This document shows, one piece after another, positions 10,769 through 16,638 of a DNA stretch of 29,194 bases. Source of the stretch: a virus. Taxonomy: Duplodnaviria; Caudoviricetes. The notes under the pieces are model-generated. The model was given only the letters and a program-made list of their open reading frames with translations. It was not told the origin of the DNA and did no database searches. The translations under genes and the position numbers were made by a program. The DNA is taken from positions 1 to 29,194 of IMG/VR virus record IMGVR_UViG_3300046009_010636; one strand, 5' to 3'. Each line of letters opens with the position of its first letter. Position 1 is the first letter of the stretch.

Positions 10769-11142
10769 GCCGCGACTCCATCGAGCAGAGCAGCAAATTC
10801 GGAAACCATTTTCTCGAAATCCGCGTTCGTCTCTGGCGAGTATGCCGTGACAGGTTCGCCGAAATGATGGCTGCCGATGGCGACTCGGATGTGGCGCGTG
10901 TACTGCTGCTGGAGATCGCGTTTGCGATTCGCGTACCATTTTGCGGTCTGTCCGCATGGTTCGAGCCAGATGTTCAGCGACCAGCCGTCCTCAAAATTCA
11001 AGTAAACCTGGGTTTTCTTACCTTCGTCAAAGTAGATGCGGAATTTGCCATGGTTCGCCCAGGGTCTGCCACCGAGCATTTTGGCGAGCTGAATGAGAAA
11101 TTCTGGAGTTGGGTTGCCAGTTTCGAGATTGTAGTGTGTCAT
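10765..11142 (-). CDS. Hypothetical protein, first gene of leftward operon
   Basis: MTHYNLETG..., 125 aa. Lies downstream of a consensus promoter, with GGAG/GGAA upstream of the ATG. Confidence 0.8.
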   Translation of the reverse strand: MTHYNLETGNPTPEFLIQLAKMLGGRPWANHGKFRIYFDEGKKTQVYLNFEDGWSLNIWLEPCGQTAKWYANRKRDLQQQYTRHIRVAIGSHHFGEPVTAYSPETNADFEKMVSEFAALLDGVAA

Positions 11143-11176
11143 GTAGTTCCGTGTCGACTCCGTGCCGACAAACTCT

Positions 11177-11207
11177 ATTATACACATGGAGAAAATTATT
11201 TTGTCAA
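11177..11207 (-). promoter_or_regulatory. Leftward sigma70-type promoter
   Basis: Minus strand TTGACA (11207-11202), 19-bp spacer, TATAAT (11182-11177). Confidence 0.8.
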
Positions 11208-11223
11208 TCGGAGAAAATTATTT
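11188..11223. promoter_or_regulatory. Direct-repeat operator candidate GGAGAAAATTATTT x2
   Basis: Exact 14-bp copies at 11188-11201 and 11210-11223, flanking the -35. A partial third copy GAGAAAAT lies at 11289-11296. Confidence 0.7.
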
Positions 11224-11260
11224 ATATATTTATATTCAAAATAGGTCTAAAGTCCCAGAC

Positions 11261-11305
11261 GATTGTAGAAAAAGTTTTTATACAATCTGAGAAAATGTGT
11301 ATACT
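11261..11305 (+). promoter_or_regulatory. Rightward promoter with palindromic operator
   Basis: Inverted repeat GATTGTAGAAAAA-G-TTTTTATACAATC (11261-11287, one mismatch) over the -35 region. -10 TATACT at 11300-11305. Confidence 0.65.
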
Positions 11306-11312
11306 ATGGTGG

Positions 11313-11498
11313 ATGGCTAACACAAAAACCATGAACGAGCTGATCGAGGAAGCGGCGCAGTGGCTGATTATTCAGCGCAACCTGCGACCATTTTCTCGCA
11401 TCGCGAAAGAGGCGGGTTTATCCCCACAGGGTCTGCGATACCGAGCAGAACACTTTATACGAACAGGCAAGATGCCAGGACAGAAAGGAAGCAAATAA
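11313..11498 (+). CDS. Small helix-turn-helix regulator (Cro-like position)
   Basis: MANTKTMNEL..., 61 aa. FSRIAKEAGLSPQGLRYR is an HTH pattern. First gene of the rightward operon. Confidence 0.75.
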   Translation: MANTKTMNELIEEAAQWLIIQRNLRPFSRIAKEAGLSPQGLRYRAEHFIRTGKMPGQKGSK

Positions 11499-13469: not shown

Positions 13470-13753
13470 GCAATGTTATCAAATTCACTCCCAGAACCAT
13501 CAAGGTTTACCACTGCGATGTTTGCAAGCAACCATTTGAATGGGGGAGTAATTCGCATCTTTACGGGTCAGTCGGACACCAAGACATTGGTGCAAGACAG
13601 TTCAAAGTCTGCTCGAACCAATGCCGCAAGAAAGCTCCTTCAATTCTAGACATGGAGTACATCATCGGAGACTACAAGTGCTCTGGTGGCGGCAAAGTCG
13701 TAAACGCTCACTGGGATGAATGGGACAATAAAACTGGAAGATTTACAAAATAA
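13466..13753 (+). CDS. Zinc-finger protein (CxxC...CSxxC)
   Basis: CDVC and VCSNQC, 95 aa, lower GC than its neighbours. Confidence 0.7.
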   Translation: MSNVIKFTPRTIKVYHCDVCKQPFEWGSNSHLYGSVGHQDIGARQFKVCSNQCRKKAPSILDMEYIIGDYKCSGGGKVVNAHWDEWDNKTGRFTK

Positions 13754-13958
13754 ATGGAGGATGAGGAATGATGCGAGAATATTCAATTTTAGATATGATG
13801 CCATTTGGCAAGTATCGTGAGGAACTTGTTGGAACCGTGATAGAGGAAGACCCCGACTACATTTATTGGGCGATTAACAACACCGACTTTCGACTTAATG
13901 CTCATGGTAAAAAATATCTAAAGATTGTAGACCTAGCGAGAGAAATGGAGGATGAGGA
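13752..13958 (+). repeat. 16-bp direct repeat AAATGGAGGATGAGGA bracketing one gene
   Basis: Exact copies at 13752-13767 and 13943-13958. Confidence 0.9.
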
Positions 13959-13962
13959 GTGA
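13768..13962 (+). CDS. Small MPFGKY-motif protein (ExoX C-terminal/DUF3820-like)
   Basis: MPFGKY...DPDYIYW motif, strong GGAGG RBS. Confidence 0.7.
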   Translation: MMREYSILDMMPFGKYREELVGTVIEEDPDYIYWAINNTDFRLNAHGKKYLKIVDLAREMEDEE

Positions 13963-14039
13963 AAATTCTAGGAATACTTCGACCCACCGATAATGGTTGG
14001 GTCTGGGAGACAGAACCACCAGCGGAGGAGAAGAAATGA
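13959..14039 (+). CDS. Micro-ORF (26 aa)
   Basis: GTG start overlapping the upstream TGA, GGAGG RBS, MKILGILRPTDNGWVWETEPPAEEKK. The stop overlaps the next ATG. Confidence 0.55.
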   Translation: MKILGILRPTDNGWVWETEPPAEEKK

Positions 14040-14200
14040 CTGTCCGACGTGCCATCGAGGTCCTAAGCGAGCAGGAAAACCTGTCGGTCGATGTCGTCAG
14101 ACCAGGCGTTTGGCAGCTGACCTGCGGCGATGAAATCGACATTATCGGCGAGCAGAAACTGGTCGACTTGGCAAGGCAAATCGAGGACGACGGAGCATGA
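14036..14200 (+). CDS. Hypothetical protein (54 aa)
   Basis: MTVRRAIEVL..., GGAGG RBS, ATGA overlap with rusA. Confidence 0.7.
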   Translation: MTVRRAIEVLSEQENLSVDVVRPGVWQLTCGDEIDIIGEQKLVDLARQIEDDGA

Positions 14201-14559
14201 GAAAATCGGACACGACCACCATCACGATCGGACCGAGCGTCAACAACATGTACGCGAATGTCCCAGGCAAGGGACGCAGGAAAACTGGCGCGTACAAGGT
14301 CTGGCAGGACAGTGTCCAGCTATACCTGGCACTCACACTCCGAGCTGTCAGTGGTCCTGTCCGAATACATTACATGTTCAATCTCGGTCCCACGTTTCGC
14401 GGCGACCTGTCGAATCGAATTAAGGCGCTCGAGGATGCGCTGGTCAATGCTGGCGTAATTGATGGCGACACGTTTAACACGGTCGTCGGTGGCACGTTCG
14501 AGCATTGTCGGACGGACGATAAAGAATCGAGTGTGACGATCAAAATCGAGAAAGTCTGA
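14197..14559 (+). CDS. rusA: RusA-family Holliday junction resolvase
   Basis: PSVNNMY and DLSNRIKALEDALV...IDGD catalytic pattern, 120 aa. Confidence 0.85.
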   Translation: MRKSDTTTITIGPSVNNMYANVPGKGRRKTGAYKVWQDSVQLYLALTLRAVSGPVRIHYMFNLGPTFRGDLSNRIKALEDALVNAGVIDGDTFNTVVGGTFEHCRTDDKESSVTIKIEKV

Positions 14560-14565
14560 TATAAT
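14557..14565 (+). promoter_or_regulatory. Extended -10 promoter for replication genes
   Basis: TGA-TATAAT (TGn plus consensus -10) at the start of the intergenic gap. Confidence 0.7.
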
Positions 14566-14569
14566 AAAC

Positions 14570-14659
14570 ATGGAGCATTTAACAGGCGAGTATGGTTTCC
14601 TTCCTCCATAGATACCTTGCCAGAAAGCCTGTTAAATGAGGAAGGAACTAAAGGTAAAA
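14570..14659 (+). ncRNA. Structured 5' leader (candidate cis-regulatory RNA) of the replication initiator
   Basis: 12-bp perfect stem 14576-14587/14627-14638. Internal TTCCTTCCTC is complementary to downstream GAGGAAGGAA. Confidence 0.6.
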
Positions 14660-15499
14660 ATGAATAAAAACGAGGGCGCATCGTCGCCAAATATTTCGAC
14701 ACCCATGGGATGGTATCCCTGGTATCCGCGAGACTTCGCATCGTCAATCACTGTCCGCAGCATGTCATTTACGGCGCGCGCCATCTATCGCGAGCTGCTC
14801 GACATTCAGTGGGAAAACGGCTGTTTAACAGATGTTGAACGGCTGTTGAACATTCTTGCAATTTCGCAGGAACAGTGGTCAGAATTCGCGCCATATTTAG
14901 ACGAGTTGTTTCCAGATGGTCGGAACATTCGTCTCGATCAACTGCGAACCGAAGCGATTGAACGTCAAAAAGCTAAGAAATCAGCGGGTCAAAAATCAGC
15001 CGAATCGAGGCGCAGTCAGGTTCAAAAACCTAAGAAAACAAAACGTTCTGAACAGGTGATGAACAAGTGTTCAACAGATGTTCAACAGGTGTTCAACAGC
15101 AGTTCAACAGATGTTCAACCAAACACAAACACAAACACAAACACAGACAGATTATTAACACTAGCTAAAGCTAGTGTAGAGACGCGTGATGTTTGGATTA
15201 TTCCTGAGTGTCTCAGAGAGGACCGATTTCTCGCCAGCTGGTCGGCATTCGTCCAACATCGAAAGGACATAAAGAAACCGATTTCTGCTGTCGGCGGAAA
15301 GGCGCTGCTGCACAAGCTGTCGAAACATGACGCGGAGCTGGCAGCCGACGCGCTCGATGAATCGCTGGCGAACGGCTGGCAGGGAGTTTTTCCAGAGAAG
15401 GTAGAACGTAGCGAACGACCTGGGCGCGCCAGGTCTGGATCGAACGAAAGAAATAGCATGCTCGCCAGAATTGGCAGCAGTATCGAGGAACTAGAATGA
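14660..15499 (+). CDS. Replication initiator, DUF1376/YdaU-type N-terminal domain (lambda O-like architecture)
   Basis: WYPWYPRDF...MSFTARAIYRELLDIQW at the N-terminus, internal iterons, and C-terminal W.AFVQHRK...SLANGWQGVF. An alternative in-frame ATG lies at 14636. Confidence 0.85.
   Translation: MNKNEGASSPNISTPMGWYPWYPRDFASSITVRSMSFTARAIYRELLDIQWENGCLTDVERLLNILAISQEQWSEFAPYLDELFPDGRNIRLDQLRTEAIERQKAKKSAGQKSAESRRSQVQKPKKTKRSEQVMNKCSTDVQQVFNSSSTDVQPNTNTNTNTDRLLTLAKASVETRDVWIIPECLREDRFLASWSAFVQHRKDIKKPISAVGGKALLHKLSKHDAELAADALDESLANGWQGVFPEKVERSERPGRARSGSNERNSMLARIGSSIEELE
14821..14853 (-). repeat. Three inverted copies of the 11-bp iteron
   Basis: CTGTTTAACAG, ATGTTGAACGG, CTGTTGAACAT. 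The last is the exact reverse complement of ATGTTCAACAG. Confidence 0.75.
15045..15177 (+). repeat. Putative replication origin: 11-bp iterons, (AAACAC)4 and hairpin
   Basis: NNGTTCAACAG-type units x5 at 15067-15121 plus two degenerate upstream units. AAACAC x4 at 15121-15144. ACACTAGCT-AA-AGCTAGTGT at 15158-15177. Confidence 0.8.
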
Positions 15500-16020
15500 A
15501 CACACCAACACTCACCAAAACACTCATTAAAGCATTCGCCGTCCTGATCGACGGCGGCTACAAAACGTACGGCGACTGGTCGTTTGAGCAGATGCAGACG
15601 AAGGCGAAACTGTACGCGCTGCTGATGGCTGACGAGCCGAAAATCACGAAGGAAATCGTGCAATCGACGTGCATGCGCTATATGCGGCGACAGGTCTGGG
15701 TCTGGAAGGGCGGCGAGCAGTCGCCAGCATCAATGGATTTTCCATCAGCACCAGAGTTTCGCGAGGCGTGTCTGCAGACATGGCATGCCGAGTTTCAGAC
15801 GCTGGCTATCGGCTACAGCCAGAATGAACTCGGCTATCAAATCGCGCACACCATCGACATCAGGCGGAACATTCCAGAGGCTGAGAAAGAGCGGCTGATT
15901 GACCATGCCAGAAAACAGCTGGGACTGCCGACGCCAGAACCTGCGCGTGAGCTGACAGCCGACGAGCTGCAGCATGCGAAATCACTGGTCGCGAACATGC
16001 TGAAGCTGGAGGATTTATGA
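15496..16020 (+). CDS. Hypothetical protein in helicase-loader (P-like) position
   Basis: 174 aa, ATGA-coupled to the initiator. An FPSAPEFREAC motif is reminiscent of loader/inhibitor proteins. No Walker A. Confidence 0.55.
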   Translation: MNTPTLTKTLIKAFAVLIDGGYKTYGDWSFEQMQTKAKLYALLMADEPKITKEIVQSTCMRYMRRQVWVWKGGEQSPASMDFPSAPEFREACLQTWHAEFQTLAIGYSQNELGYQIAHTIDIRRNIPEAEKERLIDHARKQLGLPTPEPARELTADELQHAKSLVANMLKLEDL

Positions 16021-16493
16021 CGCAAAAGTTCAGCGAGCAGAGCTGGCAGCATCGCGAGAAAACGCTGGGCGATATTGCAGAAACTGCGTTTACGTCCTGG
16101 GCGGATGAGACTGGTCTAAAGTACATCCGCTGGGGACTTGAGCGTCCGCCTCTCGATGTCGCACTGCTGCCGTCGCACATCGCACAGGCGCCAGATTTCC
16201 TCATCCAGGAACGGTTCATTGAGGTCCAGGGATGCGGCGCAGACCAGACGTTCAAATTCAAGCACCAAAAACTGAATGTCATTTCGAGCTGGAACAGCAT
16301 CCACAGGGTCGACTGGTTTCTATACAATCAGCCGCGAAATGAGTTTCTGGTGGTCGAGCATCTGGCTTTAGAGTCTGCCTGTCTCGGTCTCGGCGGCGCG
16401 TTCAGACACGACGGCTATTTTGACGGGAATAAGCCGTACGCTACAATGAAATGGGAAAGATTGATAAGACATGGCAAAGTTCTCGACAGGTGA
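16017..16493 (+). CDS. PD-(D/E)xK-superfamily nuclease-like protein
   Basis: GDIAE helix followed by APDF...FIEVQG (ExQ variant), 158 aa. Confidence 0.6.
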   Translation: MTQKFSEQSWQHREKTLGDIAETAFTSWADETGLKYIRWGLERPPLDVALLPSHIAQAPDFLIQERFIEVQGCGADQTFKFKHQKLNVISSWNSIHRVDWFLYNQPRNEFLVVEHLALESACLGLGGAFRHDGYFDGNKPYATMKWERLIRHGKVLDR

Positions 16494-16638
16494 TTCGATG
16501 TTTCATTCCAACATGGTCGACCACCGAAAATGGTGGCTGAATGATGATCGATACCTGACACCAGAAACGCAGGCGCGTCTGATAGAAATGCAGTCAGCCG
16601 AGGAAATCCGAGACGAGGACGAGCTGGTCGATGATTGA
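16471..16638 (+). CDS. Hypothetical acidic protein (55 aa)
   Basis: MAKFSTGDSMFHSNMVDHRKWWLND...ELVDD. Fills the gap and overlaps both neighbours. Confidence 0.6.
   Translation: MAKFSTGDSMFHSNMVDHRKWWLNDDRYLTPETQARLIEMQSAEEIRDEDELVDD

Follow-up and report, generated by a model that had tools for sequence, protein, structure and literature searches.

A putative pseudoknot between a leader loop and the ribosome-binding site of a likely phage replication initiator gene

The window analysed here, a 29,194-base virus record, carries tailed-phage genes (terminase, portal, capsid, endolysin, Gam, Erf, SSB and RusA) and, between a rusA-like gene and a likely replication initiator gene starting at the ATG in position 14660, a short structured leader. 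Comparison with homologous leaders led us to regard it as a real, covarying cis-regulatory RNA. We consider it probable that this leader acts in cis as a translational brake on the initiator, through a pseudoknot between its hairpin loop and the ribosome-binding site (RBS). The observed basis of this reading is the covariation of two stems (P1 and P2), the partner-specific complementarity between loop and RBS, and the recurrence of the same architecture in related phages.

Complementary segments and a covarying rod

A previous sequence-only reading of the window had proposed an RNA switch or pseudoknot at this site, and all the complements named in it turned out to be exact Watson-Crick (WC) matches: 12 bp between 14576-14587 and 14627-14638, 10 bp between 14597-14606 and 14638-14647, 6 bp each for 14613-14618/14651-14656 and 14570-14575/14604-14609, and 5 bp for 14591-14595/14606-14610, with ATGs located at 14636 and 14660. 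Such an arrangement is rare, as 1500 mononucleotide shufflings of the leader (106 nt) never produced a 12-bp helix or two helices of at least 10 bp, and among 275 tiles of the window a 12-bp helix was found in just one and two helices of at least 10 bp in none. The leader was divided into the following segments:

14570..14575, + strand: P0, 5' decoy segment, which can pair with the loop at 14604-14609
14576..14587, + strand: P1 5' strand, pairing with 14627-14638; its AACAG core is also present in the iterons
14588..14592, + strand: 5' side of the purine-rich 5x4 internal loop, whose sequence pattern is that of a loop-E/bulged-G motif
14593..14596, + strand: P2 5' strand, pairing with 14619-14622 in the RNAalifold consensus
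14597..14606, + strand: loop segment S2a, complementary to 14638/39-14647
14613..14618, + strand: loop 3' segment S3a (anti-Shine-Dalgarno, anti-SD), 5'-adjacent to the P2 3' strand, predicted partner 14651-14656
14619..14622, 14623..14626 and 14627..14638, + strand: P2 3' strand, internal loop 3' side and P1 3' strand, respectively, from the alignment
14639..14659, + strand: purine-rich tail made up of S2b (14639-14647), a linker, and S3b at the Shine-Dalgarno (SD) position (AAGGTA, 14651-14656)

A 13-codon upstream open reading frame (uORF; 14570-14611) starts at P0 and is not conserved.

Eight close leaders were compared: that of the window, four obtained by protein and pattern scans (loci L001, L003, L004 and L005) and three from a metagenome scan (L165, L168 and L171), L001 and L003 being identical from P1 onward. 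In this set, 97.5% of the 119 alignment cells of P1 and P2 were paired and 6 of the 16 base pairs had changed on both sides, so that the covariation among homologous leaders which the sequence-only reading had named as its check was indeed found. None of 500 shuffles scored as high in paired cells and slid controls reached only 26-40%, while the number of double-changed pairs was matched by 33 of the 500 shuffles. P1 was paired in 100% of its cells, with 3 of its 12 pairs changed on both sides, and P2 in 90.6%, with 3 of 4 pairs so changed; RNAalifold, unaided, yielded the same P1/internal loop/P2 fold. Of the 8 close leaders, 7 have GAGTA/GAAA as their internal loop and L004 has CGTA/GAAA. 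An AGUA/GAA strand pattern lying between two helices is what we take to be a loop-E/bulged-G motif, and this pattern was present in those 7 leaders, the eighth showing one C-for-A variant, with 3x3 or 4x4 purine-rich loops at this place in more divergent leaders (see below). A literature search on this loop-E-like internal loop returned nothing. With helix limits set by hand, 10 of 11 leaders have a rod of 19-20 stacked layers.

The small inner hairpin that had been drawn inside the outer stem (TATGG/CCATA) did not survive this comparison, being complete in only 3 of the 8 close leaders and having a pairing probability of 0.01 in the full leader; in simulated transcription it appeared as a co-transcriptional intermediate, at lengths up to ~14630. 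The conserved inner stem is instead P2 (14593-14596/14619-14622), separated from P1 by the 5x4 internal loop. An unrelated viral contig (L119, 1495-1552; model E 0.42) likewise contains a stem whose internal loop is GAGTA/GAAA; we consider it a weak look-alike.

Predicted pairing of the loop with the ribosome-binding region

The TACCTT/AAGGTA complement (14613-14618/14651-14656, hereafter S3), given a secondary role in the sequence-only reading, proved to be the partner-specific one, a predicted pseudoknot pairing at -9 to -4 of the AUG. When the last 7-8 loop bases were matched with the final 12-14 bases leading up to the AUG, under three choices of window, permutation of each leader's own partner gave an exact p=4e-4 for 7 close leaders and 1e-5 to 2e-5 for 10 leaders including three divergent ones. 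The number of WC pairs in S3 is 6 for the window, L165 and L168 and 8 for L004; in 12 leaders, the RBS partner of the loop starts at a position between -4 and -11 relative to the AUG. Variation within populations agreed with this pairing. In contigs of two sequencing runs, T14618>C accompanies A14651>G, a matched change in S3; in a second variant, read by hand, loop positions 14595-14617 and tail positions 14640-14655 had changed together and an 11-pair loop/tail match was restored, and the over-called N-terminus of database entry P0004 agrees with this second variant. Moreover, in six phage pairs with near-identical initiator starts, loops were only 41-81% and tails 54-83% identical between phages whose flanks were 83-97% identical, and the pairing nevertheless persisted. 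Together, the covarying rod and the partner specificity of S3 uphold the proposal that this leader is able to pair its loop with the ribosome-binding region of the initiator.

The 10-bp helix between loop and tail (S2), on which the sequence-only reading had put its emphasis, fared differently. Its complementarity is exact, and S2a in the window beats loop shuffles (p 0.03), but partner specificity across relatives was lacking (p 0.13-0.15, largely compositional) and the helix lies 13-22 nt before the AUG. We consequently rejected S2 as a conserved pseudoknot; it may represent an extra lock, specific to a lineage, on the sequence upstream of the SD. The alternative pairing of the 5' end with the loop (P0, ATGGAG/CTCCAT), also pointed out from the sequence, was kept as a candidate, with an own-partner p=0.043 over 8 leaders: it reaches 6-7 bp in 6 of the 8 and is weak in L001 and L003 (3 bp, -2.9 kcal/mol). 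In simulated transcription, P0 paired with the middle of the loop at an early stage.

Four divergent leader types (L174, L177-180 and L181, from a 40-50% identity band, and L217, from a RusA scan) differ in sequence and follow the same plan: the -10-like hexamer at the upstream stop codon is followed by a stem, a purine-rich loop of 3x3 or 4x4, a second, short stem and a loop of 8-9 nt. They show a perfect 7-bp loop-RBS match whose RBS side starts -9 to -11 from the AUG, in versions that differ by compensatory changes (GTAGCTC/GAGCTAC, GTATCTC/GAGATAC and GTACCAC/GTGGTAC), and 2 of 7 pseudoknot pairs had changed on both sides among 5 aligned leaders, L174 being off by one column in that alignment. 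With a fixed detector, loop-RBS matches of at least 5 bp were obtained at 6 of 14 initiator starts versus 0 of 360 other open reading frame (ORF) starts; the detector missed L168, L177 and L179, and three others scored 4. A model (R1), run on 78 sources, gave only the window below E 0.1 and failed to recognise the divergent leaders, whose kinship is consequently judged by position, architecture and a GATACC shared by the L174 loop; from these we infer common descent of close and divergent leaders. Only AGG/CCU in P1 is common to all leader types. Further members were scarce: a pattern scan of viral contigs produced 119 matches in 47 of 64 parts, with only three family members, all already known; 3 of 15 matches in the metagenome scan belonged to the family; and scans with the downstream gene, an 89-aa gene and the L180 hairpin yielded no further leader.

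Two other structures were observed in these searches. An additional conserved 5' hairpin precedes the pseudoknot domain in L177-L180 (~2856-2912) and L217 (~2372-2425); it was found in 5 viral contigs only. In L177-180, the initial bases resemble the P1 strand and loop and are able to pair with the RBS strand. A different leader, of a proteobacterial type and ~130 nt before DUF1376-like genes, is shared by L183, L185, L188 and L192 of distant phages. As folded, it consists of an outer GC stem around a hairpin with a CTGATCC/TTGATCC loop, contains a segment complementary to the pre-start region, and had no Rfam match at gathering score.

A probable translational brake and its alternatives

The leader is preceded by the extended -10 element that the sequence-only reading had placed there:

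14557..14565, + strand: extended -10 (TG-n-TATAAT), TGATATAAT, with a predicted start at ~14571-72 and no good -35

The TGnTA(T/G)A(A/C)T pattern occurs a single time on the + strand of the window, and a sense promoter-like site lies upstream of the initiator in 10 of 14 loci versus 1.3 expected. At the same 14 loci there were 0 antisense promoter-like sites versus 7.2 expected, although such a consensus scan cannot exclude a transcript. The TG-A-TA-x-AAT motif is retained although two different rusA reading frames run through the -10, the P1 arm begins 9-12 nt after the hexamer in the 8 close leaders, and no terminator was found within 13500-16500. A local extended -10 promoter is thus predicted to drive the leader transcript.

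According to the brake model, this promoter would yield a transcript starting just 5' of P1. During transcription, its 5' end would briefly hold the middle of the loop (P0, as a transient decoy); later, the 19-20-layer rod formed by P1, the internal loop and P2 would assemble and the RBS would emerge free. Since S3a abuts the P2 3' strand, the 3' end of the loop would then stack on P2 and pair with positions -9 to -4 as an H-type pseudoknot, blocking initiation, with S2 as a lineage-specific extra lock. The output of initiator per message would in this way be confined to a short window of time. As judged from geometry, the 12-nt linker of the window can span the rod, whereas S2, with its 0-1-nt linker, and P0 are incompatible with an intact straight rod, which implies that the leader has competing states. 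The closed state would be stabilised by the upper part of P1 and the internal loop, a face that is nearly invariant while loop and tail diverge and must therefore be recognised by something. As the trigger we favour, tentatively, intramolecular docking of the A-rich linker on this face, that is, a folding timer without a dedicated ligand, which would be the single most likely option within the brake model; binding of the initiator follows closely as the next, somewhat doubtful one. We think it rather unlikely that the leader reflects a sequence-free design valid for the whole clade, in which a trans factor (the C-terminal domain of the initiator or a host double-stranded RNA enzyme) would read the fixed-length two-turn rod and decide on closure of the pseudoknot, while the loop/RBS pair would be re-coded rapidly from one near-identical phage to another as a private specificity code.

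Several observations weigh against the brake model. The nested folding energy of the leader is unremarkable (z -0.23, and z -1.35 for 14570-14662), so the case for it rests on comparison, and the significance of the shuffle tests on the close leaders is overstated because the leader sequences are related. The windows for S3 were fixed only after the pairings had been seen; just 4 WC pairs form S3 in L001, L005 and L171; and when the whole loop was matched with the whole tail the own-partner p was 0.063, with 3 of 7 close leaders beating composition shuffles. The detector, too, was designed after the pairings had been seen, and its first version, which had a parsing flaw, found 3/14 versus 1/360 at 6 bp. 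G14638 is needed by two helices simultaneously. The linker from P1 to S3 is of 1 nt in L174, L181 and L217, so that S3 would require P1 to fray or bend in these leaders, and SD-like strength at the S3 position is weak in L180 and L181. Two initiators (L175 and L176) have neither leader nor -10 element. Finally, the pseudoknot is read as an OFF state because S3 covers the SD position, and we infer this polarity solely from that position.

Among other explanations, autogenous repression would have the initiator, or another replication protein of the phage such as SSB, bind the P1/internal-loop face and lock the pseudoknot when the protein exceeds its DNA sites. The near invariance of that face amid scrambled loops and tails would fit, as would the 8 nt that the P1 arm has in common with the window iteron, the occurrence of the E-loop-type leader only in a single initiator clade (support 100/100) whose members share a C-terminal region, and the precedent of T4 gp32 and gp43 in the portions of a review used here (PMC3014915). 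Yet the leaders of L001 and L003 are 97.6% identical while their initiator 5' ends are only 65.7% identical, both N-domain/iteron types occur with the same P1 arm, the leader in general reassorting freely with respect to initiator N-terminal type and iterons, and the internal loop differs in divergent leaders; on balance we hold this explanation to be possible but unlikely. If the P1 arms were instead inverted half-sites for the initiator shortly downstream of the promoter, acting in transcriptional autorepression with an incidental RNA fold, the resemblance of the arm core to the iteron, with 8 identical nt in the window, L171 and L165, and the position of the arms 9-12 nt past the -10 hexamer in the 8 close leaders would be accounted for. 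Such a DNA operator leaves unexplained the covariation of P2, the G-U substitutions, the internal loop and the S3 match; arm and iteron types do not co-segregate, L174 having the same iteron 8-mers and an unlike arm, and we give it very little credence.

A processing switch modelled on the lambda N leader, in which RNase III would cut the two-turn rod, detach the anti-SD loop and turn the initiator on, tying replication to host state, is improbable in our view. The rod does measure about two helical turns (19-20 layers in 10/11 leaders) and the best proximal-box match was 3/4 in 10 leaders and 4/4 in 1, by E. coli rules as given in the part of PMC1540722 consulted, from which the host enzyme may differ; however, a 3/4 match is easily reached by chance, just 6-8 of 11 layers are paired, and in the best register the distal box falls wholly or partly in the non-canonical internal loop in 10/11 leaders. 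Equally improbable is remodelling of the leader by a ribosome finishing rusA or re-initiating on the uORF at 14570-14611, whereby read-through and local transcripts would be translated differently and the pseudoknot could even activate, as for repZ. An upstream stop does lie 7-18 nt before P1 in 10/12 leaders, and translation of the window uORF would terminate inside the loop. The distance from stop to P1 is, however, 58-66 nt in L180 and L217, an ATG uORF exists in only 2/8 close leaders (a third has a 6-codon GTG frame), and the overlap of stop and -10 is to be expected anyway because such hexamers contain stop triplets. The loop could also be read by an antisense RNA, or the fold could bind a metabolite or an ion. 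Incompatibility loops diverge rapidly in antisense-controlled replicons, and antisense reading would account for loop and tail diverging here faster than the flanks; loop-SD pseudoknots, for their part, are common as riboswitch platforms. The absence of antisense promoter-like sites at the 14 loci and the finding of just two isolated 9-mer loop matches elsewhere in the window speak against these readings, as do the lack of an Rfam match and of nucleotides common to all leader types beyond the P1 AGG/CCU, and we regard both as highly improbable. The brake model remains our preferred reading.

Genome setting and known systems

The window is probably near complete, because four relatives with direct terminal repeats span 29.6-33.7 kb. 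Its best matches were lake-water metagenomes, three of them possibly its source, with no match among the GenBank phages searched and, among the GTDB prophages searched, none of this clade and 6 distant matches. No tyrosine integrase was found in 10/10 records searched, and no resolvase-family or ParA-family gene was found in 5/5 records searched. The two genes flanking the leader are:

14197..14559, + strand: rusA-like Holliday junction resolvase gene (PHROG 34, E 7.8e-11; Pfam RusA, 22.7 bits, cut-off 22.8)
14660..15499, + strand: likely replication initiator, 279 aa, with a DUF1376/YdaU-like N-terminus and an O-like/primosomal C-terminus

The TGA stop of rusA supplies the TG-A of the extended -10. 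The downstream gene matched Pfam DUF1376 (E 1.4e-5; 25.8 bits, below the 30.1 cut-off) and PHROG 678 'replication initiation O-like' (E 5.8e-14), and contains internal 11-bp direct and inverted iteron-like repeats (~14805-14859 and 15040-15127); these domain matches and repeats make it a likely replication initiator. Its homologues begin at the equivalent of the ATG at 14660. The ATG at 14636, from which database entry P0001 was called, is in frame and not conserved, and was discarded as the start. Two interchangeable N-domain/iteron types were noticed among the initiators, one with GTTCAACA repeats and the other with GGCTAG/AAGCC-type repeats (window, L003-L005 and L168); their swapping onto the same C-terminal region and leader looks like a sign of modular recombination of origin specificity. 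Elsewhere in the window, 11140-11330 forms a divergent promoter region in which a perfect TTGACA-17-TATAAT on the minus strand (~11175-11203) faces small unknown ORFs; a 58-aa ORF (11324-11498), preceded by TATACT, reads like a Cro-type regulator, and GGAGAAAATTATTT boxes repeated at ~11188 and 11210 look like operators; the record yielded no integrase.

That the leader lies outside named RNA families, as had been suggested, was borne out by covariance models: no Rfam family matched at gathering score in the window or in 20 loci, none matched the leader at E<=10, and none matched in 4 loci at E<=2. Our literature searches found no paper describing this leader, nor a description of how lambda-O-like/DUF1376 initiators are dosed in integrase-less phages, and no motif like this leader appears in the part of PMC5737381 covered. 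Fremin et al. (2023) list by name, with no mechanism, three predicted structured RNAs, DNAVirus_4653, _187 and _230, at <=25 nt upstream of DUF1376/YdaU genes (PMC10690425); DNAVirus_4653 (124 nt, 43 sequences, mostly freshwater) could be this leader or the L177-type one, a comparison made by its listed description only. At 65-120 nt, the leader is compact and testable, and nature provides compensatory variants of it, simpler versions in L174, L181 and L217, and leaderless controls in L175 and L176, where the rusA stop lies ~20-35 nt before the initiator ATG.

The sequence-only reading had likened the leader to the pseudoknot control of plasmid replication initiators. In the ColIb-P9 IncI/IncB-complex repZ/repA system, as described in the sections of PMC8383071 and PMC10286972 drawn upon, a pseudoknot that lies upstream of the RBS is necessary for translation, requires translation of a leader peptide and is blocked by an antisense RNA. 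The analogy is loose. It holds in that both have a pseudoknot, here a predicted one, between a loop and a downstream segment in the leader of a replication initiator; it fails for the partner's position upstream of the RBS and for the conserved leader peptide. The partner in the phage leader is the SD position itself, and ATG uORFs occur in 2/8 close leaders and none before P1 in L174 and L181. The carrier is a phage, not a plasmid, with no antisense promoter-like site at the 14 loci. This is therefore not the IncI repZ system: a conserved leader peptide is missing, the predicted pairing covers the SD, and the consensus scan revealed no antisense promoter-like site. The hok mRNA of plasmid R1 may be similar in having an anti-SD with two possible partners, the 5' end or the SD, and transient co-transcriptional folds; it differs, going by the passages of PMC9841398 used, in that it encodes a toxin and is switched by 3'-end trimming and the Sok antisense RNA, whereas here the anti-SD sits in a hairpin loop and would form a pseudoknot, the decoy being weak in two relatives, L001 and L003.

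The gene 32 pseudoknot and gene 43 hairpin of T4 are likewise structured phage leaders limiting translation of DNA-replication proteins, gp32 and gp43 repressing their own leaders, as set out in the portions of the 2010 review cited above (PMC3014915). There, the gene 32 pseudoknot sits ~67 nt upstream and serves as the nucleation point for protein that binds over an RBS lacking structure, while here the predicted pseudoknot helix itself covers the RBS. The same portions of that review describe the T4 gene 32 pseudoknot as possibly the only viral pseudoknot in translational autoregulation. Were the present leader a pure folding timer, it would offer a portable part for limiting translation per message; were it controlled in trans, it would add a new case beside T4 gene 32. 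If the clade-wide design were true, it would be, after T4 gene 32, a second phage case in which a pseudoknot provides feedback on a replication protein, here in small phages for which no integrase was found and with a polarity opposite to that of plasmid repZ.

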